The notes: a model not told the origin generated them from the letters alone. Positions 18,733-64,000 are shown, numbered from the stretch's first letter. The stretch is DNA of 64,000 nt from Dictyostelium discoideum (GCA_000004695.1 CM000154.2:4864001-4928000), one strand, 5' to 3'. Numbers and translations are program-made.

Positions 18733-20580
18733 TTATAGGAATGTAAAAGTTTACCAGCATCAAAAAAATTAGATTTAAATGATTTAATGATTATGCCAAT
18801 TCAAAGATTAGTTAGATATGTATTATTATTAGAAGAATTAATACAACATACACCAGAATCAACAGAACCAAATGAACATAAAAAATTAATTGAAGCAAAG
18901 AATGTAATGAAAGATGTAGCATCATTTGTAAATCAATCAACAGTTGATAAACAAGGTCCATTAGAAACTTTAACAAGAGTTCAACAAACTTTAGGTCCAA
19001 AAACTGGTAATTTAATTCAACCACATAGAAGATTTATTAAATCTGGTGATTTAGTTAGAGTTGTACAAGTCCAAGATGATGAAAATGAAAATGATAATAA
19101 CAATAATCTAAATAATCCAAATGAAAATAAACCAAATAAGAATACTGATGATGGTGATGAAATTATTGAAAAAAGAATTATTAATATTTATTTATTTAAT
19201 GATTTAATAATTTATGCAATTAATAATAAATTTTGGAGAAAGATTTATTTAGTTGAAGTTTGGATTAGAAGTAAAGAGATTAAAGGATTACAAAATGTTT
19301 TTGAAATTTATAGTAAATCATTATCATGTATATTTCAAAATCAATTCTCTAGTGATAGTAGTAGTAGTTTTCAAGAGTGGTCATCTTTAATTCAATCTAC
19401 AATTAATAAATTATTAATTGATGATTCTGATGCAAAAGAAAAAAGATTTAATCTTTTAGAACAAGATGATCAAATTCAAAAAGATTTCACTTTTGAAGAG
19501 AGACAATTCTATTTCGAATCAATGAATAATCCTCAAAATCCTCAATTTAATGATATAAAATTATTTAAAGATTCATTAATTGAAGATGGTATTGTTGAAG
19601 ATAGGAAAAAGAAAATTGAAAGTTTAATTACATTTCGACCAAATATTCCTATTTTAGATCAACAACAAAGTAATAATAATAATAGTAATAATAATAATGT
19701 AGAAAATTGTAGAAGTAGTATTGGTAGTAGTAGTGGTGAAATTAATTTAAATAATAATATTGAACAGAATGGATTTTCTGATAGTTCAGATACAGGTGTT
19801 GCATTATCAGATAATTCAGATAATGAAGAAGCGAAAAAGAAAAGAAATACGTTAAAGAAAAGAATGGTATCTCAAAATAATTTAAATTATAATTCAAATA
19901 AAACCAGTGGTGTAACATTATTGACTCAACAATTAACTGGTAAAAATAAATCGTCGTCGTTGTTATCACATATTGCATTAACTAGACAGAATATAGTTAT
20001 GCAAGGTTATCTTACAAAAATTGGCGAAGTTGTAAAAAATTGGAAGAGAAGGTGGTTCATTTTTGAGAGTAATTATCTTTTCTATTTAAAGAATGAGCAA
20101 TCCTCAAAGGTGTTGGGTATAATACCACTAATTGGCTCAAAAATTGAAAATATCGATCAGACTTCATTCAACATTTCAACTACTTCAAGAACCTATTTAA
20201 TCATTGCTGATTCTCAAAATGAGCTTTCAAAATGGACAAAATCAATATTAGATTTTCATAATTCAAGAGATAATTTCATTAACAATATTAAACAACAATA
20301 TTCAAGTAGTAGTTCTTTAAAATTAATAAATAATCAACAACAACATCAAACTCAACAACAAACTCAACAACAAATTCAAAAAAGATTATCTTGGTTATCT
20401 GCTGCTTTACCAAATATTAATTCAAGTTTTAAAAAACCACCCCAAAATGATAGATCAAAAACAATTGCAAATTTTAGATTCACTCAAATCTTAAATGAAA
20501 ATAATAATATCCCACCAGATTCCTCTTTATCTAAAAGTGTTGATGCTTTAAGCTTAAGTAGTAATACTACCACCACTACA

Positions 20581-20618
<38 letters not shown>

Positions 20619-20694
20619 CGACTATGAAGATGATTGTGATAGTTTATCTTCAGAGGAAGAGTTTGATGATGAAGAAGAAGAATTTGATAGATAA
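17627..20694 (+). CDS. RhoGEF: Dbl-homology (DH) + PH domain protein (~963 aa), gxc-type. Exons 17627..18562 and 18739..20694.
   Basis: ATG 17627. DH motifs (ANILREIQTTEQAYISFLKVLVDVY, IFSNIEAI, LIMPIQRLVRYVLLLEEL). GTAAGT donor at 18563. Intron made of an (ATTT)n microsatellite. Acceptor tattatag ending 18738. PH-like IVMQGYLTKIGEVVKNWKRRWFIFESNYLFYLKN...SKWTKSI. Acidic C-terminus, TAA at 20692-20694. Confidence 0.8.
18620..18734. repeat. (ATTT)n microsatellite filling the RhoGEF intron
   Basis: tttatttatttatttattt... repeated ~25 times between the GTAAGT donor and the tattatag acceptor. Confidence 0.9.
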
Positions 20695-31222: not shown

Positions 31223-32036
31223 TATTTTTTTATTAATTTATTTAATTAATTATTTATTTATTTATTTATTTTATTTATTTATTTTATAAATTTATTTTAT
31301 TTATTTATTTTATCTTTTCATTTATTAAATGAAAATTTAAAAAAAAAAAAAAAAAAAATTAAAAAAAAAAAAAAAATTATTGTTGTGTGGTAAATTAATA
31401 CACACTGTTTTTTTTAATGAAAACATTTCTGAAAAGAAAATATGAAAATCTAAAAAAAATACATTTCCCAATGGAAATATTCATGCCACAGAGTTAACTT
31501 TATAAACATAATCATTAAAGATATTAATAAACAATGTAATTGTTGTGTAAATTTTTACACAGCAGTTGGTGTGATGCTGCAAAAAAAAAAAAAAGAAAGT
31601 TGATCATTTTTTTATGAAATCTTGGCATACCCTTGATATCAAATTTTGAAAAAGGTTTTTTTATTTTGTTTTTTTTATTTTTCTCACTTTTTAATTTTTT
31701 TTATTTATTTATTCAAATGAATTGGCTAACATCACTGAAAAACTTATTCCACTTCTTCGCCATATCAAAAACTAACAATTGAGGTACTGCCAAGGAAAAA
31801 GATAAGTTATGGATCATATGTCACATTAATCTACTACTTAAAAAGATCTTTAACTAAACAAATAACTTAAAATAAAAGATCACTTTTTAATAACCAAAAC
31901 AAAATACAGCTATAATAATAAATATATTAAAAACAATAATGGGGGTAGTTTTTAAATTTTTTTTTTCTATTTTTATATTATTTTTTTATTTATTTTAATT
32001 TTTTTTTTAAATTTTTTTTTTTTTTTTATTATATAT

Positions 32037-38924: not shown

Positions 38925-39912
38925 CTCTCTCTTCTCTCTCTATATATATATTATTTCTTTTTTTATTCTTTTTTATTTCCTTTTTACCTTGCTCTTCTTT
39001 TTTTTTTTTATTTTCTTTTCTTCTTGTTTTACTTTATATTATATTCTTTTTTTTTTATTTTTTTATTTTATATATATATATGTGTTTGATATATTAATAA
39101 ATAATTTATTTTCCTCTTTTAAATTTATTATTTATTTATTTATTTTTTTAAAATAAAAAAAATAAAAAATAAAAAAAGATTGATGAATAATAAATAAATT
39201 ATTATCAAATGTTCGAACAATGAGGATTGAATAACTTAAAAAAAATATAAAAAAAAAATTTCAAAAAAAAATCTTTTTTTTTTTTTTTTTTTTTTTTTTT
39301 ATTTTTTTTTTTTTAATTTTTTATTTTTTTTTTTTACTTTTCTATAAAGTAATTCAAATAATGATACAGACACACGAAAAAAAAATAGAATAAAACAAAA
39401 TAAAAAAAAAAAAAAAAATTAAAAAAATGAATAAAAAAAAAAAAAAAATTAAACAAAAGGGGGAAACTATATATATATTATTTTAATAATAATTCTTTAC
39501 TTTTTATTTTTTTTATTTTTTTTTTTTGAGATATTTTTTATGTGATGTGTGTGGGACCAGGTCAAATTAAAAAAAAAAAAATAAAAATAAAAAAAATAAA
39601 AAAAAAAATAAAAAAAAAAAAAAAAAAAATAAAAATGGTAAGATAAAAAAAAAAAAAGATAAAATCTAAAAATGAATTTAAAATCTAAAAATAAATTTAA
39701 AACAATTCTTGATTTAAAAATATAATGAACCAAGTTTTATTTTTATTTTTTTTTTTATTTTTATTTTTTTTTGTGTCTATTTTTATTTATATAAATAACC
39801 ATATTTTTTAAAATTGTTTTTTAATATCTTTTTATTTATTTATTTTTTTTTTAAAAAATTTAAATGTACACCAAAATTATTATTTATTTTTTATTTTTTA
39901 ATTTTTTTTTTT

Positions 39913-41457
39913 TTAATTTTCATCAAGTGTTAATATATATTCTAATAAAGAGATAATACCATCAATTTGCATATCTCTAAGGAAAGATTTGAAACGATCA
40001 CCATCAGTTTGGAATAAAGTTGTCATTCTTTGAATGATTACAGACTTTTGAGATGAACCTAAACTTTCATCAGTGAGTAAACTAATGAATTCATCATAGA
40101 GTGCTGTATCATTTATAACATTTGATTGATTATTTTCATCACCACTACCACCATTAACATTACTTGTATCAACATTATTATTATTATCACCATTGTTAAT
40201 TGAATGATGATGTTCATGTGAAGAATCAATTAATTCTTGTTCATGTTGATGTTGTTCATCAAATAATTCATCATCAGGTGATTGAATTATTAAATTCTCT
40301 AAAATTTCATCATCATTTGAACCTTGAACGGGTGATAATGCAGAATCTTTAAAGATTTTCAAACGATTTTCAATGAGTAGTGTTATGAAATTACAATGGG
40401 ATTGAATGTTTGTCATGTGAACTTGAAATTGTGGATTTGAAGGATTGGTATTAACTGAACGTAAGATATTTGGTGCAAAACAAACACCCAATCCAATGGG
40501 ATTCATTTTATTGATTGAAGATTTCAAAGAAACCTGCTCCAAATATTCAATGAGGTAGGATAGAACACGAACATTCTCAGTTGGTAACTTCTCTTCAACA
40601 AATACTCTAGCTTCATCGATTGTAGCGGGCACAGCTGGACTTGTGAATAGTTCCAATGGGACGAGAGGGAATTTTGACTCTCTAAGATACAATTTCAATA
40701 GACCAGCTAAATCATGAGCTGATGAATTCCCATCAACTGGTATTGCCTCTTGAACATTATTTAACATTAACCAAAGTGAACGTACAGATTCAGCATTACC
40801 ATTCACTCTAAATAATCCTTCAGTCTCTATAGCATTGGTTTTCTTTAATGCTGTAATGATCTTAAATATATTTATAAATGATAATGTTGCCGATGAAAAT
40901 GGTGCTGACAATATATGTTTCTCATAAAGTGAATCCCTACTTGGTCGTGATTTAAAGAATCTCTTTAATTTACCTGATATAATTGTTGATTTTGTAGTTT
41001 TCTTTGGTGATGGATGATGTAATATTTTATTTGGTAATGGTAATACATTGTTATTATTATTAGTTGAAGAGGATGATGATGGTGGTGATGATGATTGCGT
41101 TATTGTATTACCTGTATTTGTAGATTGTAAACTTGCACCCATTGTTGCATTTCCACTACTATAATGATTTATATTTAAATTACTATTTGATGTTGATTTA
41201 GTTAATGATCCAATACTATTTAATGATGAAGAACCTGATGAAGATCCTGATGATGATGGTGTGGTTTGATTCGCTATACCTGCTATATTACTTGCTGATG
41301 TTGATTTTGCTAAATTATTTTGTGCTGTAGTATGTTGTAATGGTGGTGATCTAGGTGGTGATTGTAATGCTGGTGGTTTATTTACATGTAAATTTGATCC
41401 ACCAACATGTTGAAATGTATTTGGTGGACTAATTGAAAGTTTACTTGGATTTGACAT
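39913..41457 (-). CDS. RhoGAP domain protein (514 aa), single exon. Ser/Thr/Pro-rich N-terminus, acidic His-rich C-terminal region.
   Basis: ATG 41457. RhoGAP core with arginine finger [21 protein letters not shown], ...[25 protein letters not shown]..., ...[19 protein letters not shown]. Confidence 0.75.
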
Positions 41458-41639
41458 TCTTTTTTTTTTTTTTTTTTTTTTTAATTTTTTATTATTATAA
41501 TTATTATTGTTATTATTACAACAAATTTATTTTTAAAATAAATAAATAAATAAATAAATAAATAAAAAATAAATAAATAAATAAAAAAATAAACAGATAA
41601 ATAAATAAAACAAGAATAAATTAATTAAAACAGTATAAG

Positions 41640-42185: not shown

Positions 42186-42228
<43 letters not shown>

Positions 42229-44009: not shown

Positions 44010-44499
44010 ATTGAGTTTATTATTTATTATTTATAAATTTAATATGAATGTGTGAGGAATTTTTAAAAAATTATAATAATATTGAGAATAATGATTGGAA
44101 AAAAAAAAAAAAAAATAACTTTAAATAGCTTTTTTTTTCATCCAGATCTCTTTAATTTTTTTTTTTTCCATTTTTAATGAAAATTATTGAGGGGATTTTA
44201 AAATTTTTTTTTTAATAAAATTAAATTAAATAAAACAAATAAATTAAATAATAATAAAAATATTTGAATTTTATGTTAAAATAAAAAAAAAAAAAAAAAA
44301 AATAAATGTGGTTTCATAAAAACCATAAAAACAAAATTATTTATATTTTAATTATATGGGTTTAAAAGATAGATAATTTTTTTCAATTTGATTGTGTAAC
44401 ATAATTTGGTAGAGATTTTTTTTTAATCTTTCAAAAAAAAAAAAAAAAAAAAAATAAAATTTCATCTTCCAAAAAATAAAAATAAAAAAAAAAAAAAAA

Positions 44500-44544
<45 letters not shown>

Positions 44545-44745
44545 ATTTTCATTTTTAAAAATTTTGGGATATATCAACATCATCAATATCATCCTCAATA
44601 CCCCAAAAACCATTTCCAAAACCAAAACCACCCCAATTCAAAATTAAAACCAAAAACAACACCACCACCACCACCACCACCAACACCACCACCAACAACA
44701 ACAACAACAACAACAACACCACCACCATTACCAATTGATAAAAAA

Positions 44746-44967
44746 ATGGTAAATAAAAATAATTATAAAAACTTTGAAAAGCTTCCATTGAAAACCCACC
44801 CATTCCTTTCATTAATAAACTCGAGTAAACCAAATAATAATTTTATTGAAATCAATGGAAAGATTAAAAAACTTTTATATGATCCAGTTAATTCATATAT
44901 AAAGGGTTCCATAACTTTACCAATGTTATTTTCCTTATTAAAATATAATAATATTATAATTGGAAGG

Positions 44968-45002
<35 letters not shown>

Positions 45003-48000
45003 CCTTACTAAACTTAAGTATTTATATATATATATTTAGTCATTAAAAGATTTTGAATCAGTTATATCAGATATATTTTGGTTAATTAGTATAGAGGTTG
45101 AAGGAGTTGTATCGAAATCATCACAAAAAACAAATTTAATCTCATTGATTAAAGAAAGTATCTCTCAAAGTTTAGTTGCATCTGTCATTCTAAAAGAGAA
45201 ATTAGATATTGATTTACTTGAAGAATCTGGTTTAATTAAAAGTTCAAAGAAATTTACAAATAAAATTATTAGAATAAATACAAAAGAAGTGTATGTTATT
45301 ATATAATATATAATATATAAAAATCACACACACACATTCACCTACCAACCACTAATTTTATATATTTTTATATTTTTATATTATTATATTTTTATATTTT
45401 TATATTTTTATATTTTTTTTTTTTTTTAGATATACTCAAGTTAAATTTAATTTATTTAAAGAAGAATCAGAAGGTTTTTCAAAAGTTTTATCAGAATTAA
45501 ATAAAGGATCAGAATTAAATTTGAATTCAGTCGATTCAACTATTCAAAATATTAAATCATTGATTGGTTATTTCAATTTAGATCCAAATCGTGTTTTAGA
45601 TTTAGTATTGGATTCATATGAACAAAATTATCAAAATTCTGAATGTTTTCAAAAGATTATTAAATGTTTTAAAATATCTGCAATACCCCAATTATTGGGG
45701 TTTAAATATCAATATTATCAACAACAACAACATTTACAAATTCAACATATTAAACAACAATTAGAACAACAACAACAAGCTGCTGCTGCTGCTCCAACTA
45801 CTACATCTACAACTGATTCTACAACTACTACTGCAGCAACAACGACACCAACAACAACACCAGCATCAGCATCAGCATCAGCAACATCAACAACAACAGC
45901 AGCCTCATCAACATCAACAACAACAACAATTAATCCAATTGATATTATTACACCAAAATCATTATATATGGTGACAGCAAATTTATTAAAAGAAAAATTA
46001 TTTACATTGGAATCGATTTATCCACATTTAGCACCAAATGATGAAGAGATAAAGAGTCAATTTTTAGCAAGAAAAGAAGAGCTTATTTCATCATCAAAGG
46101 GTGGTACCTTGCCAACCACAGCAGATGATGATTCATCGACTAATAAGAAACCAATGTCAACTAGTGGTACTACAACAATAAGTATTGGTAGTACATCATC
46201 GGTATCATTATCATCGAATAATATTGATTTATTAGTTCAAGAGAATCAGAAATTTAATTTATTAGTATCATTATTAGATGTGAATGATACTGATTGTACA
46301 AATCAATTATTATATCATTTGACATCAAACGGTATTGATGTTGCATCAAATTCACATGTATCCACTGCATTAATCTCAAGATTGAATCAAATTATTGAAC
46401 CGATTTATAGACCAATATCATTTGCAACTTTGAAATCATCATCCTCTGGTAATTGTGGTATTGATTTACCAACTTTTATGGCATCTTCAGAGATGATCTT
46501 CTTTTTACTCTCACATCTCGGTGTTTATTTATCACATGATATTAAATTATTTACAAAATTATGTAGAATTTTAGAAAAAGTTGTACCAAAAGTAATTTCT
46601 TTAGCAAATACCTCAACTATACAAGCACAAGCCGCTGCTCAAGCCCAAGCTCAAGCACAGGCTTCACAAACACAATCTGATTCAATGGTAGTAGATACAC
46701 CACCACCACCAACAACTACCACTATGATTCAACCAAATCAATATTCAACATTTAAATTAGAAATTGAAAATTTAATATCAAATGTATTATTACCAACTTT
46801 ATCAATGATACCAAGTAATCCATGTGCATCTAATGAAATTTGGGAAGTTATTAAGCATTTCCCATATCAAAAGAGATATCAACTTTATTATGAATGGAAA
46901 GAACAATATGGAAAGATATTATCATTGATAGTATTAAAACAAGAGGTAACTGGTGATACTAAAAAGATTCTTAGACGTTTATCAAAGGATAACTATAAAC
47001 AGTATGGTAGAGCCATTGGTAAATTAAGTTATGGTCACCCAACCATTGTTTTACAAGTGATTCTATCACAAGTAGAACAATACGATTCATTGGTAATACC
47101 ATTGGTTGAATCATTGAAATTCATTTCCAATTTGTCTGGTGATGTTTTATCATTTGGTTTATTGGAGAGGTTAACCATTAAACGTGATAAACTTAAACCT
47201 GATGGTACAAATATTTCATCATGGTTTCAAGCGTTGTCATTATTCATTGGCTCATTCTATAAGAAATATCCATCCACCGAATTGGAAGGGTTACTTCAGT
47301 ATACTGTAAATCAATTAAAAGAGAATAATTCATTGGATCTAATCATTTTGAAAGAATTGTTATTAAAAATGGGTCAAACTGAAATCGTTGAAGAACCACC
47401 TGAAGCTCAAATGGAGGCACAAGCTGGTGGTGAAGTATTAAAACAAGAAACTAATACAATCGTTATTACAACTGGTGGTGGTGGTGGTGGTAGTGGTACT
47501 CCTGGTGGTGCTCCTGGTAGTGGTGGTGGTGGTGGTGGTGCATTAAGTAATAGTAGTAGTATTGCAAATGCTCCTAGAAATACAAAGAAATCAATTAATA
47601 GATTAAAAGATACTTTAATCAATAGTAAATTAGCATTCTCATTCTTTGTTTTAATTGCAAAACAACGTTATGATATCATTCATAATACAAGTGAACAATC
47701 ACAACATATTAAATTAATTAGTGATCTCTATGATAAATGTCAAGAAACTTTAATTCAGTATACTGAATTCCTTACAAATCATGCAACATCTGAAAAGTAT
47801 TCAGAATTCTTTAAAGAGGATTTCAATACATTAATCACAACCTATTGCCTAGAGCCAGAAGCTGCTTTTCATATTTATAGACCAATATTTTCAAATGGTG
47901 CTGCCAATAATAGACAATTAATTGTAAATAACTGTAAACAAATTTATCCTGATGAAGTTTGGAAATCAATGAATCCTGAACTATATTCTGTATTTTGGTC

Positions 48001-50885
48001 ATATTCATTATATGACATTTATGTACCAAAAGCATTATATGAAAGTGAAATTGCAAAATTAAAGAATCAAATTACAACAATTGATTATGGTTTAGTTGGT
48101 ACTACTACTACTACCACTGCTACTGCTAGTGGTAGTGGTGGAGGTAATTCTAAAGATATTAATAAAAAGAAAAAAGATAAAGAAAGAATTCAATCAACAA
48201 TTGAAAAACTTCAAAAAGAATTGGCAATTCAAACTTTAAATCATCAAAAAGTTTTAGAACATATTCAATCATTAAAAGATAAATTCTTTGAATTTTCATT
48301 AAATTCACCTGTAAATCAAACAATTAATTCAACAACAACAACAACAACAACTTCAACAACAACTTCAACAACAACAACAACAACAACCCCTACAACAAAA
48401 GATATGTTACAAAATGGTAAAAAAGAAGGTATTATTAAATTTTTACAATATTGTATATTTCCAAGAGCAACATTTACACCAGCAGATGCAATTTATTCAG
48501 CTAAATTTGTTCAAATTTTACATAGTATTAGTACACCAAATTTCTCAACATTAAATTATTTATTAGATCTTTGTCAATCGATTACTTTTATGATTTATTC
48601 AAGTACAGAGAATGAAGCAAATAGATTTGGTAGATTTTTAAATGAATCATTAAGTATCCTAACCAAATGGAAATCATCAGAATCACTATACGATAAGGAA
48701 TGTGCAAAACTTTTAAAAACTTTAGCATTAAGTTATGATAATTTCGTTAGATTCTTTCATCGTTGTCATAAAACAATCTCTGAATCATTTTCAAATTGTT
48801 TAGAGAATGATGAATATATGGTCATTAGAAATGCGCTATTGGCATTAACTAAATTGGTTCATGTTTTCCCAGCTCATAAATCTTCTTATGAAAATATTGA
48901 AAATTTAGTATTAAAGTTAAAGAAAAGAGATGAATTGAAAACATTGGCAATTCGTTATCATTCATTATTAGAAAAAGAAAAACCAAGAATGATTGATGAT
49001 ATCATTAAACCAACAAAACCAAAAGCTAATCTAAAAGATTCAAAATCGCCAACTACAACTTCTTCAACTCAAACTACAACAACAACTTCTTCAAAAGATA
49101 GTGGCACTACTACTACAACTTCTTCATCAACTCCAACTACAACTTCTTCATCAAATAGAGATTCAATTAAAGATGCTGATATGATTGATATTAATGATGA
49201 AAATAATAATAATAATAACAAATCAAAAGAAAAAGAAAAGGAAAGAGAACGTGAAAAAGAAAGAGAAAAAGAAAAGGAAAGAGAAAAGGAAAGAGAAAGA
49301 GAACGTGAAAAAGAAAGAGAAAAAGAAAAAGAAAAGGAAAGAGAACGTGAAAGAGAGAGAGAACGTGAGAGAGAAAAAGAAAGAGATAGAGAACGTGAAA
49401 AAGAACGTGAACGTGAAAGAGAACGTGAACGTGAGAGAGAACGTGAACGTGAAAGAGAAAAAGAAAAAGAAAAAGAAAAGGAAAGAGAACGTGAACGTGA
49501 GAGAGAAAGAGAACGTGAGCGTGAACGTGAAAGAGAGCGTGAACGTGAACGTGAAAAAGAAAAAGAAAGAGATAGAGAACAACGTGAAAAAGAAAGAGAA
49601 AGAGAACAACGTGAAAAAGAAAGAGATAGAAGTGATCGTAATTCCGATAAAAATAATAATAATGATGGTGGTGGTAGTGGTAGTTCAAGAAGTGATAAAT
49701 CCTCTTCAAAAGATAGTGGTAGTAAAAAAGATCAACAAACTCCACGTAAAGAAATTGAAAAATCAGAATCAAGAGAGAATATTCGTGATTCACGTTCAAA
49801 TGATAACAATCAATCATTATCATCCTCTCGTGAAATTAGAGAAAGAGATAAAGAATTAAAAGAAAAAGAGCAACGTGAAAAGGAACAACGTGATAAAGAT
49901 CGTGAAAATAGGGAAAGAGATAATAGAGATGTTAGAGATTCACGTAATGATCAAAGAGGTAATCAAGAAAGAGATGGTGGTGAACCTCAACAACGTAGAC
50001 AACAACAACAACAGCAACAAGAAAGAGATAGAAACGATATTAGGAATCAAGATAATAACAATAATGACTCTCAACAACAACAACAACAACAACAACGTAG
50101 ACAACAAGACAATGATAGAAGAGATAGAGGTAATCAAGATAATATAAATAATAGAGATAATAATAGCAACAATAGAAATGATAATAGAGAAAGACAACCT
50201 AATCAAGATAATAGAGATAACAACAATAATAATAGTAATAGAAATGAAAGAAATGATAGAAATGATAGTAGTAGAGAAAGACAGGATAATAGAAATGAAA
50301 GAAATGATAGTAGAGAAAGACAAGACACTAGAGATAATCGTAAAGATCAACAAAGAGATAATGATAAATCAAATCAAGTGCAAAGGAATCGTGATTCTCA
50401 ACCATCGTCACGTAATTCTTCACCACCCCATAACCAACCACAACAACATCAATCACAGCAACAACAACCACAACAACTTTCTCCACCAATTCCACAAACC
50501 GATGAAGAGAAATTTAAAAATGCAAAGAAAAAGAGAGAAGAGAAATTTGAAAGTAAACAAAAAAATAATAATGAAATCGATCAAGAATCACCTCCAAATA
50601 ATAATAATAATAGTAATCAATCATCAAATTCAAATCCATCTTCAAATCAAAGTAGTAGATCAAATAGTAAGGATAGAAGTGGTGGTCAACAAACTCCTCG
50701 TGATAATCAAGAAAGACAAAGTGGTGAAAATAATAATAATAACAACAATAATAATAATAACACTAGAGATGACCATGATAATAAAGATAAATTAAAAGAA
50801 ATGAGAGATAATATTCGTAAAAAACAAGAAAGTAATAATAATCAAAATAATAATCAAAATAATAATAATAATAATAATAATAATC

Positions 50886-50942
<57 letters not shown>

Positions 50943-51295
50943 CACCACAAGAAAATAGAGAGGATAAAAAGAGAGATAGAGAAAAAGAAGAAGAAAAGGA
51001 AGATCAAAAGAAAAGAAAAACTCAAATTAATCGTAATAGAGTTGGACCATCACCACCTCCACAAAATCTTCACCCTTACCAACCTCCTCAACATCTTCAA
51101 CATCCTCAACATCCTCAACATCCTCATCATCCTATGTCACACCACCATAATCAACACCACAACCAACAACAACAGCAACAACAACAACATCATGGAGGAT
51201 TTAGAGGTGGTAGAAATGACAGAAATGATAGAGATGTTAGAGATGTTAGAGATGAAAGAGATAACAGGAATGATAGATATAATAGAAGAAATTAA
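44746..51295 (+). CDS. thoc2: THO complex subunit 2 (THOC2/Tho2) orthologue with a very long Arg/Glu/Asp/Lys/Asn-rich C-terminal tail. Exons 44746..~44970 (3' boundary unresolved), 45040..45290, 45430..51295.
   Basis: ATG 44746. N-terminal exons align from memory to metazoan THOC2: YDPVNSYIKGSI ~ YELSYHVIKGNL; ISDIFWLISIE ~ ILADVFCILDIE; LLEESGLIKSSKKF ~ LESLGLIKQSQQF; YTQVKFNLFKEESEGFSKVL ~ [44 protein letters not shown] ~ [25 protein letters not shown]. Donor GTATGT at 45291 (phase 2), acceptor tttttttag ending 45429. C-terminal third encoded by nucleotide-level tandem repeats (GAAAGAGAACGTGAAAAA...) giving (KE/RE/RD)n. Confidence 0.8.
49227..49625 (+). repeat. Coding tandem repeat array in thoc2 (units of GAAAGAGAACGTGAAAAA / GAAAAAGAAAAG) encoding (RE/KE/RD)n
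   Basis: Near-perfect nucleotide-level repeats of gaaagagaacgtgaa / aaagaaaaagaaaag over ~400 bp, followed by a degenerate R/D/N/Q-rich low-complexity coding region to ~51290. Confidence 0.85.
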
Positions 51296-51457
51296 ATTAA
51301 AACCACAAACAAATTAAAATTAATAAAATTTTCTATTTTTTAGATTTATTCGAAATTAATTCCAACTTTTTTCCTATTTTTTTTTTTTTTTTTTTCTTTC
51401 TTTTTTTTTTTCCTTTCTTTTTTTTTTTTTTTTTTTTCAAAAAATTATTTTATTAAA

Positions 51458-53902
51458 ATGAAACAAACAAAAAAAGTGGTGGTTGAACCAAAACCATATA
51501 TTAAGGGTGAATTTAAAAATAGATGTTTTGCAAAAGATTTAACTATTACATTTTCAATGGGTGCATTACAAAAGATTAGAAAAATGGATTCAATTGAAAG
51601 GTATGAAACAGTTATGAAGAGTAAAGATTATCAACAATTCAATTCATTTGAATACTTTCAAATGAAAGTTAGTACTTTAATTGCAATTCCATCAAACTAT
51701 TCATTCATTTACCCAATTGGTGAGTTTAATTTCAATGAAAATAAAAATCAATATGAATTTAAACCAATTGAATTCCTAAAAGCAATTGAATTGGTTAAAA
51801 GGGATAGAAGTGGTTTAATCTCTTTTACTTTTTTAAAATCAGTGATTAATAATGGTCCTGAATTTGAATATATAAAAACAAAACCACCATCTAAAAATTA
51901 TTATCAACATGGGCCTTACTATTTAAATAAATCAAACTTGAATGAATGGGAAACAACTTGTGCAAAGTTTGATCAAGAAAATGGTTTAATCTATAAAATG
52001 ATCACAAATAAAAGGTCATCACCATTTTATTCAACTTTAAAAATATTAGTTCATAGAGAAATTAAATTTGGTTTATCAAGTAGTTCGCATACATCACACA
52101 CCTATCCCATTGATAATAATCAACCATATTACCATATTTTAGAAAAAGAAACTGGTTTAAAAACTTTATCAGATGAAAATAATCAAAATAATCAAAATAA
52201 TCAAAATGATGAAAATAATCAAAATGATCAAAATAATGAAAATGATCAAAATGATCAAAATGATGATAATAATAAAGGTTGGGTAGTTAAAAATGAATTT
52301 CCATTTGGATTTTTTTTATTACCAAATCTTAAAGAAATTTGTTTTTCAGTTTTAAAAGAAATGTTTTTAATTAGTAATAAATCAGTTATTGATAAATTAT
52401 TTTCATCAATTAAATCGATAGTACCAATTAGTTTATTACAAGAATTTGTAGTTGATTGTTTTAATGATGAGAAACCAGTTGGTAATGAAATTATTTTTAA
52501 AATTTATTCAAAATCTTTATGTGAAAATTATGATTCAATTCTTTCAAATATTAATTTCCCATTAAATGATTTATTATCAAGTTGTATTAAAAGAGATTCT
52601 TGGTTTAGATATAACTATGATATGTGTATTGCACAAGATTTATTTTATCCACCTTATAAAGAAAATTTTGCAATTAATGTTTATGAAAATTTAAATTTAT
52701 TTAAATTTAAATCGATTCCGATTGAAAATAGAAAAAATATTTTATTTGAAAAAACTGGTGGTTTGGATGATTTTAACTCTTTGATTACTGGTGATCAGTC
52801 GATTGTTGACAAGTCAATGTTTATTTCAAATTTTAATAGACTTACAAATAATAGATTTAATAAAACTTTTGATGATGGTGAGAGTGGTTTTGAAAAATTA
52901 AAGAAATTAGATTGTATTTTCATTGGTGGTATTATTACAAATTGTTTAATTCAAAATGAAAATAATGATGATGGTAAGGATGTATGTGAAGGATTCGAGA
53001 AATCAGATATTGATATTTGTTTTTTCAATACATCCAACGATTTTTACGCTCAAGTTGCTCGTTTTATTGATCAGTTCTTTAAAGGTGTTGATAGGTATGA
53101 TAGTGAGGCATCAAATAATTGTAGTATTGTTTTTCAGGGAAATCATGTTACCATTTGTCAACATTATCCAAATCGTCATATTCAATTAAATCTTTATTCA
53201 CATTTATCAATTGAGGATGTTTTAATTGGTGTCGATATTGATGCAACTTGTTTTGCATTTGATGGTATTGATATATGGTGTTTAGAAAGAGCGTTGCATT
53301 CAATCAATTATCGTATTAATATCGCATCAGAGCATTCATTTTTAATTAGAGGAGATGTTAATTATCAATATAGACTACTCAAATATTTAAAACGTGGATT
53401 TGATATTTATTATTTATCAACTCCACAAATTGATAAAATTATTAATCAAGCAAACTTTGGCAATCAATCTAAATCAAATTCACCACCAACTAAAGATTTC
53501 ACCCCATCATTAAGACATGTTGGATTTTCATTATTATTATCATTAAGAATGGATTCAACACTTTACACTCCATTTTTTAAAACCAAAGAAAGATCTGAAA
53601 CTATTTTACCCTATGGTCCAAATTTTGATGATAAATATTTTAAAAGATGGGTAGGTCATAATTTCAATAAACACTACGATGGCTATAATAGTAATGATAT
53701 TCTTCAACTACTAGAAACTCCTATTTCAGATATGGATATGGGCCATAGAGATTCAATATCTTATAATCATGAATGGATCAACTCATTAAATGATAGATCA
53801 TCTAATTACATATACAATGAAGATTATTATTATAATTTTGAAGTAGATGATGAAGAAGAAGACGGTGGTGAACCTAATTACCCCGAATATAATGATTCAT
53901 AA
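51458..53902 (+). CDS. Orphan protein (814 aa), single exon. The C-terminal region has a Pol-beta-superfamily nucleotidyltransferase-like motif set (OAS/cGAS/Mab-21-like); N-terminal two-thirds are unassigned.
   Basis: ATG 51458-51460. Continuous 2445-nt ORF with typical Dictyostelium codon bias and a (CAAAAT/GAT)n Asn/Gln/Asp tract. Motifs: IGGIITNCLIQNENNDDGKDVCEGFEKSDIDICFFNTS (hGG...[S]DhDh, with an N/D-rich insert) and LIGVDIDATCFAFDGI (third acidic residue in an h[DE]h.PAF-like context, compare OAS1 GVEFDVLPAFDAL). Confidence 0.65.
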   Translation: MKQTKKVVVEPKPYIKGEFKNRCFAKDLTITFSMGALQKIRKMDSIERYETVMKSKDYQQFNSFEYFQMKVSTLIAIPSNYSFIYPIGEFNFNENKNQYEFKPIEFLKAIELVKRDRSGLISFTFLKSVINNGPEFEYIKTKPPSKNYYQHGPYYLNKSNLNEWETTCAKFDQENGLIYKMITNKRSSPFYSTLKILVHREIKFGLSSSSHTSHTYPIDNNQPYYHILEKETGLKTLSDENNQNNQNNQNDENNQNDQNNENDQNDQNDDNNKGWVVKNEFPFGFFLLPNLKEICFSVLKEMFLISNKSVIDKLFSSIKSIVPISLLQEFVVDCFNDEKPVGNEIIFKIYSKSLCENYDSILSNINFPLNDLLSSCIKRDSWFRYNYDMCIAQDLFYPPYKENFAINVYENLNLFKFKSIPIENRKNILFEKTGGLDDFNSLITGDQSIVDKSMFISNFNRLTNNRFNKTFDDGESGFEKLKKLDCIFIGGIITNCLIQNENNDDGKDVCEGFEKSDIDICFFNTSNDFYAQVARFIDQFFKGVDRYDSEASNNCSIVFQGNHVTICQHYPNRHIQLNLYSHLSIEDVLIGVDIDATCFAFDGIDIWCLERALHSINYRINIASEHSFLIRGDVNYQYRLLKYLKRGFDIYYLSTPQIDKIINQANFGNQSKSNSPPTKDFTPSLRHVGFSLLLSLRMDSTLYTPFFKTKERSETILPYGPNFDDKYFKRWVGHNFNKHYDGYNSNDILQLLETPISDMDMGHRDSISYNHEWINSLNDRSSNYIYNEDYYYNFEVDDEEEDGGEPNYPEYNDS

Positions 53903-54029
53903 GTAAGAAATCAATAGTAATCTTTATATGTATGTGAAGTAAAAATATAAATAAAGGCATTAGGTTTTTTAATTTACTTTGTAGTTTTTTTATTTTTATT
54001 TTTATTTATATTTATATTTATTTATTGTT

Positions 54030-57000
54030 TTAATTTAATTGTTTTAATTTGCTTTGTATTTGTTCTTTAAACTTTTTGGAATTTTTATTTTTGATAAAAA
54101 TGTATACAACCGAGATAACAATAATTGCCACAAAACACACTGAACCAATTACAATTCCTGCGATTTTACTGGCTGATAATCCATTTGATTTCGAACAAAT
54201 TGAATTCTCTCCTGATGCTGATTCGCTATCTAATAAAACAAAGAAATCTGGATCAATAATTACTTTATTTTTAAAATGTGGAATTTTAATTCCAATAAAA
54301 GTTTGAGTAGAGTGAGATGTTGATTCAGCAATTGTATTTTGGAATTCATCTAACAATGTATTTTCAATACCAACAATATTACCATCTACTACAGCCCTTT
54401 TAATGAATCTACCATACATTGAATGATCTTGAACTTGAAGTTTAATGTAGTTAGAGTTGTCACCATTTGTAGTATCACCAAATTGTTTTAATGAACAAAA
54501 ATCATCACTTTCATCTGTTGATAATATCGAAGCAAACATTACCAATTCGAGATTATTTAAAGCTGAAGAGAATACATAATTTTCAATTTCAATGGTAAAT
54601 TTGACTGATGATGGATTCATTTGGAGCTCTTGACCTGCAAATGTTATATTTTTGCTTGAATTAAACCATTGAATAATTGTTGTTATATTTGTGGTTTTAA
54701 TATCGTTACCATTTTGAGAAACTATTGATGTATTGTATCTACCAGTTGTTAAATCTATATCTTCAAATACCCATTTATCAAAAGGGAATGTTTTAATAAC
54801 TTCACCTTTAAAATCTAATTCTCTAATAGAAACTAAAGTTACTAATGATTTAAATAAAAATTCTGTTGAGTTTGTTTCTTGTCCACCACCACCGCCTGTA
54901 ATAGGAATTTCAACTGTTGGTTGTGAAGTATTTGTTTGTGGTGTTGGGATAATAATAATTTTTGAAGTACAATCAACTCCGTACCAAGGAGAGTAACAAA
55001 TGCATCCAAACCCACTTTGACAATAACCTTTGTTTTTTCCTCCACATTCTGGATTTCCTAAACATTTTTGAGGTGGATTTGTTGGTAATGGTGATATAGT
55101 TGGTTGTAAAGTTGGTTGTAAAGTTGGTTCTGGTGTATATGTTGGACCAGAATAATTAAAATTATAAACTATTGGATTAATTAAAAATTCATTTGATTTA
55201 ATGTTAATTTGATTGGAATCAAGTAATAATAATTTAAAAGGAATATCGATTAATGGTACCTCTGTTAATTTAATGAAACTTGAATAGGTTTTAGTTATTG
55301 TTTTTAAATTTATGTCACTACCATTCGAAATATAAATAATCGCTGTATCAACTGTACGAAAGTTTTTACCAAAAATAAATAGAGTTGAATCTTTGTTTGT
55401 AAATTCTGAAACTGATGTTATTATTGGTATATTAAATGAAAAATCTGTAGAAACAAACCAATCTTGTTGTAATGGATTTAAATCCTTAATGTCTTTTGAA
55501 GAGAATCCACTATAGGTTCCTCTATTATTAATAAAGCCATAAACAGATACTAAGAAACCATCAGGATATCCAAAACCTACTGGTACTTCTATTGTACACG
55601 AAAAGGTTATTGTAGTTGAATTAGTAATTGTTGGTGTTGCTCGGCATTGTTCCATTGCAAGTCGTTGTGGAACTAAATAAACTATTGGATTCTGTCCTTG
55701 TTTAAAACCGCTTTCTAAATCTTGTGCTTGAAAAGTGAATGTTATTGATCTATCTAAAGAGCCTACATCCATTGAAGATCTCGAGGTTTTAAAGGAAATT
55801 AAATTTGGAGGAGAACTATCCAATTCACCAGTACAATAATAATTAATACTAAAGGGTGATGAATCATTAATGAAATGAATAAATGGATTACGAGTTGACT
55901 CAAACGATTGAGTGTTTTCATAATACTCTAAAGTGAAATATTTAACATATGTATTATTGTTACCATATGTATCGAATAAACTTGCTTGAGTTATTAAATA
56001 ATCTTGAGTGATACAATTACTACTCCCAATACCAAACTCCAATGGTATTATAATTTTGTAATCACCAATAATTTTATCACCACTTCCTTCTATTAAATTT
56101 GACATGTTTATTGTAATGTTGTAGAATGAAGAATCTAAAAGTCCTTTAACAATTAAAAAGCCATCTCTGAAACCGTTTATTTCATCTTGAATTGTAAATA
56201 ACCATCCATTATGTTGTTTTATGATTTTGGTTACAATTGGTCCATAAATATCAACCTTAATTGAAGTTGCTCTTAATTGATATTCATTGGATAAATAATT
56301 ACTATCAATTAAGTTTGTATTATCAAGTACCAATGCATAACTTATATTTCCTGGTAGTGTATTTGCAGGTACTTTAAAGTTTACTCTAAATCTATTGGTT
56401 GTTTGGTCCCATACTGCAAATTTATAATTTGGATTTAAAATAGTAAATATACTATTTTCAAATCTAATATCGTTTAAAGATTTTTCATCAGTTAAATAAA
56501 AACCAATTGACAAGTCTTTATAGTCTTCAATATTATTAAATGTAAAAAACATTATATTATCAACTGATTGGTCAGTTATATCAATGTCATTATATAAAAA
56601 TGATACCTGAACTAAATCATTTAAATAATTATAATCTATTAAAATAATATTAAAAAAATTATTAGTAATGAATTATAGTAGTTTTAAAAGTGTATTATTA
56701 ATACAATTTTCTTACTTTTTAAATTAATACTTGGATATGTAAGTTTTGAAATGTTATTACCAATCTGGTAGAGATAATCACCAAATCCATATGTAACTGG
56801 GTAATCTAGGTTGCCTTCTATTTTTATTGAATTTTCGGTGATAGCATTGCTTATTTCAACAAGCTCAAATTTTATTTCTGTAAGATACTCCCAAATACCA
56901 TCAGAAGCGGTACCAGAAACAAGCATACCATTATCATGAACAGTATTCTTTGAGTTCATAATTTTTAAATACGAAACTGAAGATAAATTTGGTGAGCCGA

Positions 57001-57873
57001 TACTTTTAATTTCAATTCTGTTTAAAAACTTTAGATTTCCGATATAACTAGATGTAAAAGATTGGATTTCAAATCTTCCAACATCGGAATTAGGTAATGT
57101 AATAAATGGTTCGAAATCTCCCCTCATTTTAGTAATACATCTAGGCATACATATAGTAAGAATATTCAAAGGTGAAATGGATATTAAATTAATTGGTAAA
57201 GAGAATCCAAATTTGACCATTTCATTATTTCCTCCAATAAAGCCAAATGGAAAATCGGTAATAGTAAATGTTTGTTTATATTCTAATTGAAATGGATTAA
57301 AATCAAATTTAAATTCTGTTCCATTATACTCAGATGTAACCATTGCCATACCAACAGTTGAATTATCTTTGATAGAAGTTAACTTTGAGTTTGGTGTTTG
57401 TAATCTTGGGCTTTCTATTTTTTTAATTTGAAATATTTATATATATATATCAATTTTAATATTAATATATTTCAATTTTTTTTTTAAATATTTTAAGATT
57501 AAAAAATTAAATCAAATTTACCTGTTATATTAACAAAAAAATTGGAATATTCTTTAAATGATGGTTGTGTTTCATTTTGTCCATACAATGAAAAGTTCAT
57601 ACCATTAGCCATAATTGGTAAACAAGTTGCAATAAATGTTAAATTATTTGGTTTACCTAAAATTGGTCTTGGTGTTGAATAATATCCTAAAGTACCCAAT
57701 CTATACACCGGATTTAGAAGATTTGATTTGATTCTAAATGATAAAAGTGAACCAAATACATTTGAATATAAAACAAAATTTCCTGAAGGTGGATAAAGTT
57801 TTAAATCATAAATTTCATTCGTTACAATATTTCCTCCTTTTAAATTAAAATTAAAAATTATTATTATTATTAT

Positions 57874-57909
<36 letters not shown>

Positions 57910-58694
57910 ACTATTTTTAAAAGGTACACTAATTATTAAGTTGTTTGAAATTGGAAATGTAAAATCAATTGACCAAATATCAAGATTTTGTGACAAATAG
58001 AAATTTTCATTATAAACTATTCTGAATAAATTTCCACCCATTTTATATACCTTTACAATTTGTGAATCATATGTAAATTCAACATTTTCTGGCAAGTTAT
58101 TAATTCTGACAACCGAAAAATATTTAAAAGTAGTACTCCATATAACATCTTGAATAATATCTACTGATAGAGTTGAAATATTTAACTCTTTTTTTTATTT
58201 ATTATTAATAGAGAAAAAAATGATTAAAAAAAAAAATGATTAAAAAAAAAAAAATGATAAAAAAAAAAAAAAAAAATTGGTAATATGTTATTAATAAAAT
58301 ATTAAATATTAAAAATAATAATAAAAAAATTATTACCTTTACAATCTAAATTTAAATCAAAATATCCTATTGATGGATCAATAACAGTACCACTATTTGC
58401 AACAAATTGGTAAAAATTGTTACCTAATTGAGATTGAATATCAACTCTAAAAAGAGTAAAAGAAGAATTTGTCCATTGTATAAAACCTGCTATTAAAAAA
58501 TCTGTATCTGCCATAGTGTTAACCGTTTGACCTTGTAAACCCTCTACTAAAAAAAATTTTATTGTATAGCAACTATTTCCATTTAAAAAAGAAGAATTTT
58601 TTGAAGGTGTGAGATCTGTAAATTTAAATTGTTGAGCATTTACATTTAATTTTATTATTATAAAAATTAATAAAAAGAATAAATTCCTTATCAT
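54030..58694 (-). CDS. Large secreted type-I membrane glycoprotein, tandem copy A (~1417 aa): signal peptide, repeated beta-rich ectodomain modules, one EGF-like module, C-terminal TM and short basic tail. Exons 58694..58337, 58187..57912, 57836..57522, 57414..56716, 56635..54030.
   Basis: ATG 58694 (MIRNLFFLLIFIIIKLNVNAQQ, signal peptide). All four introns are phase 1 with GT donors (GTAATA, GTAAGT, GTAAAT, GTAAGA) and AG acceptors. Total CDS 4254 nt, in frame. EGF-like module CLGNPECGGKNKGYCQSGFGCICYSPWYGVDC. Pro/Thr linker. TM IAGIVIGSVCFVAIIVISVVYIF followed by KNKNSKKFKEQIQSKLKQLN*. Many NxS/T sequons. Possibly an IPT/TIG-type (tgr-like) family, but that is not verifiable from the sequence alone. 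Confidence 0.7.
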
Positions 58695-59511
58695 TTTTAT
58701 TTTTTTTTTTTAAGTAATGTTTTTCCAGACTAATTAAAAAAAAAAAAAAAAAAATGAAAATAAAAATAAAAATAAAACAAATAAAAAATAATAAAAATAA
58801 AAAAAAATAACAAAAAAAAAAAAAAAAAAAAAATCTTTTAAATGCCAACACCACAAAAAAAATTAGTCACATCAATACGAACACCCCAAAAAAAAAAAAA
58901 AACAATCAATTTAATCAAAAAAAAAAAGATTTTTTCAAAAAAAAATATCAAGTGAAAAGATAATTTTTTCATTTATTTTTGAACGGTTTTTTTTTTTTTT
59001 TTTTCGAAAAAGCCGATTAAAATAAATTGCAATGGAAGGGTGATGACATCATTAGCATTCGAAATACCAAACAATGAATTATTATTTTCATTTTATTTTA
59101 TTTTTTTTTTTTTTGTAAATTAGATCATTATTTGAAAATTATTATACTTTTTTTTTTTTTTTTTATTTTTGTTTTAGAAAAAAAAATTTAATAAAAAAAA
59201 AAAATGTTGTGAAAAATTAAAAAACGAATAAGATTTTTTTTTTTTTTTTTTTTTTTAAATGTAGTGTTTTAAAAAATATCTTTTAAACAGTGCATTTATA
59301 AAAATTTCGAAGCAAATTGGATTTTTTTTTTGGATGGTTATTTTTAGAATAATTCATAAATAAAAAATCATTAATAAAGATACATATTTATTTATAAGTA
59401 AGAAGTCAATATTAATCTTTATATATGTATGTAAAAATAAATAAAGACATTAGGTTTTATTTACTTTGTAGATTTTTATTTTTATTTTTATTTATATATT
59501 TATTTTTTGTT

Positions 59512-62500
59512 TTAATTTAATTGTTTTAATTTGCTTTGTATTTGTTGTTTAAACTTTTTGGATTTTTCATTTTTGATAAAAACATAAACAATAGAAATAA
59601 TAACAACTGCCACAAAACACACTGAACCAATTACAATTCCTGCAATTTTACTGGCTGATAATTCATTTGATTTTGAACAAATTGAATTCTCTCCTGATGC
59701 TGATTCGCTATCTAATAAAACAAAGAAATCTGGATCAATAATCACTTTATTTTTAAAATGTGGAATTTTAATTCCAATAAAAGTTTGAGTAGAGTGAGAT
59801 GTTGATTCAGCAATTGTATTTTGGAATTCATCTAACAATGTATTTTCAATACCAACAATATTGTCATCGACTACAGCCCTTTTAATGAATCTACCATACA
59901 TTGAATGATCTTGAACTTGAAGTTTAATGTAGTTAGAGTTGTCACCATTTGTAGTATCACCAAATTGTTTTAATGAACAAAAATCATCACTTTCATCTGT
60001 TGATAATATCGAAGCAAACATTACCAATTCTAGATTATTTAAAGCAGAGGAGAATACATAATTTTCAATTTCAATGGTAAATTTGACTGATGATGGATTC
60101 ATTTGGAGCTCTTGACCTGCAAATGTTATATTTTTGCTTGAATTAAACCATTGAATAATTGTTGTTATATTTGTGGTTTTAATGTCGTTACCATTTTGAG
60201 AAACTATTGATGTATTGTATCTACCAGTTGTTAAATCAATTTCATCAAATACCCATTTATCAAAAGGGAATGTTTTAATAACTTCACCTTTAAAACCTAA
60301 TTCTCTTATTGAAACTAAAGTTACCAATGATTTAAATAAAAATTCTGTTGAGTTTGTTTCTTGTCCACCACCACCACCTGGTATTGGAATTTCAACTGTT
60401 GGTCCTGAAGTATTTGTTTGTGGTGTTGGGATAATAATAATTTTTGAAGTACAATCAATTCCATACCAAGGAGAGTAACAAATGCATCCAAACCCACTTT
60501 GACAATAACCTTTGTTTTTTCCTCCACATTCTGGATTTCCTAAACATTTTTGAGGTGGATTTGTTGGTAATGGTGATATAGTTGGTTGTAAAGTTGGTTG
60601 TAAAGTTGGTTCTGGTGTATATGTTGGACCAGAATAATTAAAATTATAAACTATTGGATTAATTAAAAATTCATTTGATTTAATGTTAATTTGATTGGAA
60701 TCAAGTAATAATAATTTAAAAGGAATATCGATTAATGGTACCTCTGTTAATTTAATGAAACTTGAATAGGTTTTAGTTATTGTTTTTAAATTTATGTCAC
60801 TACCATTCGAAATATAAATAATCGCTGTATCAACTGTACGAAAGTTTTTACCAAAAATAAATAGAGTTGAATCTTTGTTTGTAAATTCTGAAACTGATGT
60901 TATTATTGGTATATTAAATGAAAAATCTGTAGAAACAAACCAATCTTGTTGTAATGGATTTAAATCCTTAATGTCTTTTGAAGAGAATCCACTATAGGTT
61001 CCTCTATTATTAATAAAGCCATAAACAGATATTAAGAAACCTTCAGGATATCCAAAACCTACTGGTACTTCTATTGTGCATGAAAAGGTTATAGTGGTCG
61101 TATTGGTAATTGTTGGTGTTGCTTGACATTGTTCCATTGCAAGTCGTTGTGGAACTAAATAAACTATTGGATTCTGTCCTTGTTTAAAACCGCTTTCTAA
61201 ATCTTGTGCTTGAAAAGTGAATGTTATTGATCTATCTAAAGAGCCTACATCCATTGAAGATCTCGAAGTTTTAAAGAATATTAAATTTGGAGGAGAACTA
61301 TCCAATTCGCCATTACAATAATAATTAAATATTAAGGGTGATGAATCATTAATGAAATGAATAAATGGATTACTAGTTGAATCAAAGAATTGAGAGTCCT
61401 CATAAAATTCTTGAACGAAATGTTTAACATATGTATTATTGTTACCATATGTATCGAATAAACTTGCTTGAGTTATTAAATAATCTTGAGTGATACAATT
61501 ACTAATTCCAATACCAAACTCCAATGGTATTATAATTTTGTAATCACCAATAATTTTATCACCACTTCCTTCTATTAAATTTGACATGCTTATTGTAATG
61601 TTGTAGAATGAAGAATCTAAAAGTCCTTTAACAATTAAAAAGCCATCTCTGAAACCGTTCACTTCATCTTGGATTGTATATACCCAACCATTCTGTTGTT
61701 TTATGATTTTGGTTACAATTGGTCCATAAATATCAACCTTAATTGAAGTTGCTCTTAATTGATATTCATTGGATAAATAATTACTATCAATTAAGTTTGT
61801 ATTATCAAGTACCAATGCATAACTTATATTTCCTGGTAGTGTATTTGCAGGTACTTTAAAGTTTACTCTAAATCTATTGGTTGTTTGGTCCCATACTGCA
61901 AATTTATAATTTGGATTTAAAATAGTAAATATACTATTTTCAAATCTAATATCTTTTAAAGATTTTTCATCAGTTAAATAAAAACCAATTGACAAATCTT
62001 TATAGTCTTCAATATTATTAAATGTAAAAAACATTATATTATCAACTGATTGGTCAGTGATATCAATGTCATTATATAAAAATGATACCTGAACTAAATC
62101 ATTTAAATAATTATAATCTATTAAAATAATATTAAAAAAATTATTAGAAATGAATTACAGTGGTTTTTTATGTGTAAAATTAATAGAACTTTCTTACTTT
62201 TTAAATTAATACTTGGATATGTAAGTTTTGAAAATTCATTACCAATTTGATAGACCGTGTCACCAAATTCATATGTACTTCGAGTATCTTTGGTGCCTAC
62301 AATTTTTATTGTATTTTTTATGCTAGCACTACTTAATTCAACAAAATCAAATTTTATTTCTGTAACAAACTCCCAAAAACCTTCAGAAGCGGTACCAGAA
62401 ACAAGCATACCATTATCCAAAACAATATACTTTGTTTCTTTAATTTCTAAAAATGAAACTGAAGATAAATTTGGTGAAACTGTACTTTTAATTCCAATTC

Positions 62501-63362
62501 GGTTTAAAAACTTTAGATTCCCGATATAAATTGATGTAAAATATTGGATTTCAAGTTTTCCAACATCGGTGTCGGGTAATATAATAAATGGTTCGAAATC
62601 CCCTCTCATTTTATGAGTACATCTTGGCATACATAAGTTTAAGATATTCAAAGGTGAAATTGACATTAAATCAGCTGGTAAAGAGAATCCAAATTTGACC
62701 ATTTCATTATTTCCTCCAATAAAGCCAAATGGAAAATCGGTAATAGTAAATGTTTGTTTATATTCTAATTGAAATGGATTAAAATCAAATTTAAATTCTG
62801 TTCCATTATACTCAGATGTAACCATTGCCATACCAACAGTTGAATTATCTTTGATAGAAGTTAACTTTGAGTTTGGTGTTTGTAATCTTGGGCTTTCTAT
62901 TTTTTTAATTTGAAATATTTACATATATATATATCAATTTTAATATTAATATATTTCGATTTTTTTTTTAAATATTTTAAGATTAAAAAAATTAAATCAA
63001 ATTTACCTGTTATATTAACAAAAAAATTGAAAAATTCTTTAAATGATGGTTGTGTTTCATTTTGTCCATATAATGAAAAGTCCATACCATTAGCCTTAAT
63101 TGGTAAACAGGTTGCAATAAATGTTAAATTATTTGGTTTACCTAAAATTGGTCTTGGTGTTGAATAATATCCTAAAGTACCCAACCTAAATACTGGATTT
63201 TGAAGATTTGATTTGATTCTAAACGATAAAAGTGAACTAAGTATATTTGAATATAAAACAAATTGTCCTAAAGGTGGATAAAGTTTTAAATCATAAATTT
63301 CATTCGTTACAATATTTCCTCCTTTTAAATTAAAATTAAAAATTTGTTAATAAATTATTAAT

Positions 63363-63398
<36 letters not shown>

Positions 63399-64000
63399 AC
63401 TATTTTTAAAAGGAACACTAATTTTTAAACTATTTGAAACTGAAAATGTAAAATCAATTGACCAAGTATTAAGATTTTGAAACAAATAGAAATTTTCATT
63501 ATAAACTATTCTGAATAAATTTCCACCCATTTTATATACCTTTACAATTTGTGAATCATATGTAAATTCAACATTTTCTGGCAAGTTTTTAATTTTTACA
63601 ACTGAAAAATATTTAAAAGTAGTACTCCATATAACATCTTGAATAATATCTACTGATAGAGTTGAAATATTTAACTCTTATTTTTTTTTTATTATAAAAA
63701 TATATATAAATAATAAAAAAAAAATTAGTAACATGATATTAAAAAATAAAAAATAAAAAAAATCATTACCTTTACAATCTAAATTTAAATCAAAATATCC
63801 TATTGATGGATCAATAACAGTACCACTATTTGCAACAAATTGGAAAAAACTGTTACCTCTTGGAGATTGAATATCAAATTCAAAAAGACTAAAAGAAGAA
63901 TTTGTCCATTGTATTAAACCTCCTATTAAAAAATCTACATCTCCCATAGTGTTAACCGTTTGACCTTGTAAACCCTCTACTAAAAAAAATTTAGTTGTTT
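59512..64000 (-). CDS. Tandem copy B of the same membrane glycoprotein gene; 5' end (signal-peptide exon) runs past the window end. Exons >64000..63769, 63676..63401, 63321..63007, 62896..62198, 62117..59512.
   Basis: Exon/intron structure and splice signals are identical to copy A at an offset of 5482-5489 bp. The 840-aa terminal exon is ~95% identical in protein to copy A; upstream exons are clearly more diverged. Confidence 0.65.

Follow-up and report, generated by a model that had tools for sequence, protein, structure and literature searches.

The first intron of THO2 in Dictyostelium discoideum, which cannot be spliced canonically as it stands in the 64,000-nt stretch of DNA analysed here (GCA_000004695.1 CM000154.2:4864001-4928000; hereafter the window), is very probably a base-calling artefact of the reference sequence, and the organism itself would possess an ordinary U2-type intron at this position. 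We assign this reading a probability of roughly 0.93. The window is presumably part of chromosome 5 in the Sanger-era AX4 reference, which apparently contains 56 wrong bases at this locus, causing 15 wrong residues at the N-terminus of THO2 and erasing a splice donor. The value of the finding therefore lies in curation, and what is odd about the junction belongs to the window's text, not to the organism.

As the window reads, a 97-codon ORF begins with the ATG at 44746, and in it the apparent first exon continues through ...NIIIGRN ('GGAAGGAAT') to 44970. The T33 run follows, with 32 of its Ts lying after the AAT codon and ccttactaaacttaagtatttatatatatatatttag directly 3' of it. Such a run is not unusual in this window, which is 24% GC and contains 40 A or T runs of at least 20 nt. 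The 69-nt block at 44971-45039 closes with an in-frame TAG (45037-45039), immediately before exon 2 (SLKDFESVISDIFW...) begins at 45040, in a frame shared with the exon-1 ORF. A sequence-only reading of the window had reported this T32-containing block with its terminal in-frame TAG, and it is present as described. That reading was also correct in assigning exons 1 and 2 to one THO2 gene in the same frame, and in recognising in the block the 3' portion of an intron whose acceptor is good but whose donor is missing. Its statement that no GT lies upstream of this acceptor holds within the block, where the sole GT, at 45018, would give a 22-nt 'intron', but it overlooked in-frame GTs in exon 1, which combine with the acceptor at 45039 to give canonical GT-AG introns at ATG/GTAAAT (44749; 291 nt) and CCA/GTTAAT (44887; 153 nt). 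The window's 97-aa read-through ORF had no record elsewhere in an exact protein look-up, which is uninformative.

Table 1. Features of the THO2 locus, in window coordinates. L001 and L002 are the corresponding loci in assemblies GCA_054883475.1 and GCA_054859355.1; a slash marks an exon-intron boundary, and entries marked 'true' follow the preferred reading.
Feature	Position	Strand	Remarks
A35 homopolymer	44507..44541	.	Left edge of patch; first L001 mismatch at 44557; run shorter in L001
Probable misread patch	44557..44969	.	413 nt; differs from two independent assemblies by 56 substitutions
True THO2 exon 1	44746..44961	+	72 codons, ATG to ...KYNNIII; ATG is also the start of the gene call in L002
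5' splice site	44962..44969	+	Window GGAAGGAA, true GTATGTAT; L001 ATAATT/GTATGTATTTT, L002 ATAATT/GTATGTTTATTT
Intron 1, phase 0	44962..45039	+	78 nt in window, 70 nt in L001, 106 nt in L002
T33 homopolymer	44970..45002	.	Inside intron 1; right edge of patch; 26 T in L001
TACTAAAC, branch-point-like motif	45006..45013	+	24 nt upstream of acceptor AG; ATACTAAAC kept in L002
3' splice site, TTTAG	45035..45039	+	Acceptor common to L001 and L002
THO2 exon 2 (SLKDFESV...NTKEV)	45040..45290	+	Identical in L001; 250/251 nt between L001 and L002
Intron 2, GTATGT...TAG, phase 2	45291..45429	+	139 nt; canonical in window sequence
THO2 exon 3 to stop codon	45430..51295	+	Rest of THOC2_N, then Thoc2 and Tho2 domains

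The comparison depends on independent assemblies of the same region. A protein search with the conceptual N-terminus found no Dictyostelium THO2, and therefore the locus was approached via the neighbouring single-exon gene (51458-53902), whose product has the same sequence as D. discoideum AX4 XP_635460.1 (DDB_G0291025) and KAM9948458.1. The contig encoding this gene in GCA_054883475.1 yielded a locus near-identical to the window, THO2 included (L001), with a second locus from the same assembly (L003) extending coverage to window 29898-51523. A neighbour protein of 91% identity, in D. discoideum assembly GCA_054859355.1, led to the equivalent locus in a strain diverged by ~4% (L002). Homologues of the neighbouring gene gave just this second D. 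discoideum strain and Cavenderia, with none from D. purpureum or D. firmibasis, and a look-up of a 635-aa ORF (18787-20694), aimed at widening the comparison, returned no record. Judging by our mapping of the accessions, both assemblies probably originate from the one project in which AX2-214 and wild isolates were sequenced using Nanopore plus Illumina (Holland et al. 2025, PMC12745789).

The substitutions distinguishing the window from the near-identical assembly are concentrated in one place. Across the ~34 kb of window 29898-63917 compared with L001 and L003, 55-56 fall within 44557-44976, and two elsewhere. This patch lies exactly between the A35 and T33 homopolymers. At each of the 52 gapless mismatches the window's base is that of an adjacent position in L001, and the four mismatches at the donor obey the same rule (56/56), whereas a null that preserved the substitution spectrum gave 23 +/- 3.5 neighbour copies across 5000 trials, with a maximum of 37. 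The reverse derivation, of the L001 base from a neighbour in the window, works at 33 of 52 sites only. Natural variation provides a control: 43% of the 934 substitutions between L001 and L002 are neighbour copies, evenly split between the previous and next base, and relative to this rate the probability of 56 copies from 56 sites is ~3e-21. The direction of copying also changes along the patch: to the left of 44746, 33 of the 34 sites copy the next base; to its right, 16 of the 18 copy the previous one. The diverged strain sides with the near-identical one: of the 18 exon-1 sites that differ from the window, L002 agrees with L001 at 17. The discrepancy thus starts at a long homopolymer, is surrounded by agreement, and consists of calls equal to the base ahead in the reading direction, as would be produced by a slippage artefact. 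The suggestion that a reference error tied to the T run had hidden the real donor was therefore right in spirit, but the error comprises 56 substitutions, and is not one of homopolymer length.

Two further features of this comparison can be recorded. The two isolated substitutions outside the patch, at 31361 and 63369, may be either true strain differences or single errors. Within the upstream half of the patch (44557-44745), corresponding to the THO2 5' leader, the (AAC)n of the other assemblies reads as CCA/ACC repeats in the window.

We infer the mechanism from the pattern of substitutions. The reads or PCR product from which the 413-nt stretch between A35 and T33 was called would have slipped by a single base in crossing the homopolymers. 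Beyond a long homopolymer the trace would then represent the true phase mixed with a phase one base ahead, and wherever the shifted peak was the stronger, the caller would write the neighbouring base. Plus-strand reads emerging from A35 would have the next base written, and minus-strand reads emerging from T33 the previous base, in plus-strand coordinates. We propose that the neighbour copies have a strand-dependent direction because phase-slipped reads left each homopolymer in this way, and that such miscalls turned the donor GTATGTAT into GGAAGGAA. This is similar to the post-homopolymer slippage of Sanger reads and PCR products, in which errors begin right after an A or T run of at least 30, the wrong call is that of the neighbouring base, the shift follows the reading direction, and the outcome is substitutions rather than consensus frameshifts. 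It differs in that the stretch affected here is long (~410 nt), because homopolymers hem it in on both sides, and in that the mechanism is read here from the pattern itself.

Both independent assemblies contain a canonical intron where the window has none. In L001 the junction is ...AATATTATAATT / GTATGTA-T26-CCTTACTAAAC...TTTAG / TCATTAAAAG, and in L002 it is ...ATAATT / GTATGTTTATTTTTATAC...CATACTAAAC...TTTTTAG / TCATTAAAAG, each a phase-0 GT-AG intron. The GTATGT donors start at 3513 in L001 and 3516 in L002, where the window reads GGAAGG (44962-44967), the difference across the whole splice site (44962-44969) being four substitutions, each of which replaces a T with the preceding base. The organism's own junction would be AAT ATT ATA ATT / GTATGTA-T(n)-CCTTACTAAAC...TTTAG / TCA TTA AAA, in phase 0 and ~70-78 nt long. 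From the intron boundaries in L001 and L002, exon 1 therefore ends ...KYNNIII at 44961, and the end previously placed at NIIIGRN is 9 nt too late, with 'GRN' representing misread intron. Likewise, the 'in-frame TAG' is nothing other than the acceptor of intron 1. The length of the T run, whether 26 or 33, has no effect on splicing, because the run sits inside the intron.

Removal of intron 1 joins the exons in frame, giving an ORF open to the stop codon in both assemblies (2110 aa in L001 and 2108 aa in L002), with models that are colinear with THO2 of Cavenderia fasciculata and an intron position that is conserved. Other elements of the intron are consistent with conventional splicing. The TACTAAAC motif may act as the branch point, given its resemblance to the UACUAAC consensus, and its ATACTAAAC has been retained in L002 although the intron is heavily diverged. 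No U12-type donor, (A/G)TATCCTT, was found at the start of the intron, which reads ATAATTGGAAGGAAT in the window, GTATGTAT in L001 and GTATGTTT in L002. Considering genomic sequence, annotation lengths and conservation together, we take intron 1 to be an ordinary, anciently conserved U2-type GT-AG intron.

Within exon 1, 18 miscalled nucleotides result in 15 wrong residues among the first 72 (true to window: D3N, D5N, E8K, S10F, E12K, Q14P, S15L, N18H, Q19P, Q29P, S33F, Q47P, N53K, Q59P and T63S). Identity between L001 and L002 reaches 99.1% for exon 1 and 99.6% for exon 2, compared with 64% and 59% for the introns, and 86.5% for the 200 nt upstream. Matches to Pfam domains occur in the order THOC2_N (PF16134; 101-170 bits), Thoc2 (PF11732; 86 bits) and Tho2 (PF11262; 272 bits), which identifies the product as THO complex subunit 2 (THOC2/Tho2). 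Models that include intron 1 match the recorded product lengths, of 2108 aa for L002, and of 2144 aa for L001 once a 4-nt upstream exon is added; the match is one of length alone, with the reconstructed 2144-aa (L001) and 2108-aa (L002) products being absent from the protein collection by exact look-up.

The additional exon in L001 arises from a gene call in GCA_054883475.1 that begins 379 nt upstream of the ATG (L001 2918-3198, approximately window 44356-44640), and whose 2144 aa can be recovered only by starting with a 4-nt exon (ATGG) and reading the (AAC)n tract as a poly-Thr extension. Such an upstream start looks like an artefact of the predictor, because the call in L002 starts at the ATG equivalent to 44746. 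At the other end of the gene, the C-terminal third of THO2 (exon 3, 49100-51300) is of extremely low complexity, with long (ER)/(EK) repeats and poly-N/Q tracts; the lengths of these repeats vary between L001 and L002, such that proteins of 2110 and 2108 aa differ by many internal indels.

The closest orthologue reached was the C. fasciculata THO2 (P0014), which is colinear with that of D. discoideum through exon 1. Its gene (GL883008.1, L005 3491-3569) contains a phase-0 GTAAGA...TTTTTTAG intron of 79 nt, positioned between ...SLFANDSI and KIMELNNILADIFW, equivalent to ...KYNNIII / SLKDFESVISDIFW in D. discoideum. In both species 10 codons separate the intron from the conserved DIFW motif downstream. 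The two introns are alike in phase (0), short length (79 nt, relative to 70-106 nt), AT-richness, their GTAWG donor and a stretch rich in T ahead of the AG, and there is no functional difference between them after correction of the window, the GT being missing from the window's text alone. Alignment to this orthologue slightly favoured the corrected versions of exon 1, which scored 107 and 113, against 97 for that of the window. More distant comparisons did not separate the versions of exon 1: alignments of this exon alone to metazoan or oomycete THOC2 had E values of ~0.1-1, and the Pfam THOC2_N scores were equal across all models.

The best-surviving alternative, which we nevertheless regard as very unlikely, is that the window is correct for AX4, and that this clone truly carries a patch of 56 substitutions, produced by localised hypermutation, in which the donor was lost. 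THO2 would then be expressed either via a non-canonical donor, or via the exon-1 donors at 44749 (ATG/GTAAAT) or 44887 (GTTAAT) spliced to 45039, generating a protein without 72 or 25 N-terminal residues, respectively. Both of these GT-AG introns keep the frame, and leaving out exon 1 does not change the THOC2_N score, so a truncated THO2 would not be obviously non-functional. Several observations oppose such a mutation cluster. Firstly, it needs 56 substitutions in 413 nt, against two across the remaining ~34 kb, among laboratory lineages with otherwise identical sequence. Secondly, each change copies a neighbouring base in a strand-dependent direction, and we know of no mutational process that does so. 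Thirdly, the limits of the patch are exactly the two homopolymers. Fourthly, exon 1 is strongly constrained between diverged strains. More generally, the in-frame GT-AG alternatives in the window (44749 to 45039, 44887 to 45039, 44906 to 45049, 44825 to 45049 and others) were rejected as real splices, because they delete strain-conserved sequence that is colinear with the Cavenderia orthologue.

Somewhat less plausible again is that the window is right, and that a systematic error of base calling or polishing, common to both long-read assemblies, affects the patch. The assemblies probably share a pipeline, and L001 exhibits errors typical of its platform: relative to the window, length differences with L001 and L003 occur at 13 sites in 41460-63366 (including 42186, 41640, 44534 and 57876), at every one of which the A or T run is shorter in L001, amounting to 81 gap columns with none reversed, and to 18 bases at the A41 run at 42186 alone. 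Hence these long-read assemblies are not error-free. However, 19 of the 52 L001 bases in the patch are not derivable from the window by neighbour copying, such as the Gs in GTAGAT and AAAGAT, and the window and L001 do not differ in other CCA/ACC-rich parts of the gene. A shared error would also have to create a perfect in-phase GTATGT in both assemblies, and hold exon 1 at 99% identity across a strain divergence of ~4%.

Least credible of all is that the window's text is spliced as written through a non-canonical site, as a TT-AG, AA-AG or GA-AG intron or one of U12 type. This proposal draws on the window's own sequence, which has an acceptor and a branch-like motif with no GT in the block, but the donor was canonical in each of the other sequences compared for this locus, and neither ATATCC nor GTATCC, as a U12-type donor, occurs at the end of exon 1; Dictyostelium has been reported to be without a minor spliceosome. 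The sequence-only reading had listed a non-canonical 5' splice site among its explanations, alongside an expressed poly-Phe or stop variant. Neither is supported, given the GTATGT found at the right phase in both L001 and L002 and the GT-AG intron at the same position in C. fasciculata.

An error in the reference sequence has precedent in this organism. Errors in the D. discoideum reference sequence, with gene models bent to fit them, were described by Singh et al. (2017, BMC Genomics; PMC5282741), including single-base indels and substitutions that had been patched with artificial introns of less than 5 bp. The cases are alike in affecting the same organism and reference, in generating impossible introns or altered models, and in being exposed by independent sequence; the difference is that at THO2 the substitutions fill an entire patch and a splice donor has been lost to them. 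The THO2 locus is a further, larger instance of documented reference errors, and not a new biological feature. The literature searched contained no mention of the THO2 locus, and nothing relevant on non-canonical splicing in Dictyostelium.

Gene models built on the window's sequence must be wrong at their 5' end, and analyses of the THO2 promoter or 5'-UTR using it would be misled by the CCA/ACC that stands in for (AAC)n. The signature of neighbour copies, with a strand-dependent direction and homopolymers at the boundaries, constitutes a simple test that could flag similar patches in the reference.

Elsewhere in the window, downstream of the neighbouring gene, 53889-58273 and 59384-63762 are two tandem copies, ~94% identical, of a large minus-strand gene, encoding proteins of 1408-1420 aa with DUF7035, DUF7034 and ComC_SSD domains, according to secondary BLAST matches and gene tables. 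On the other side of THO2, a 1601-nt Logan contig (SRR24091722_12428; L004) matches, at 100% identity, the RhoGAP gene region at 39885-41482 on the minus strand, and therefore contigs from D. discoideum sequencing runs do exist in that collection.
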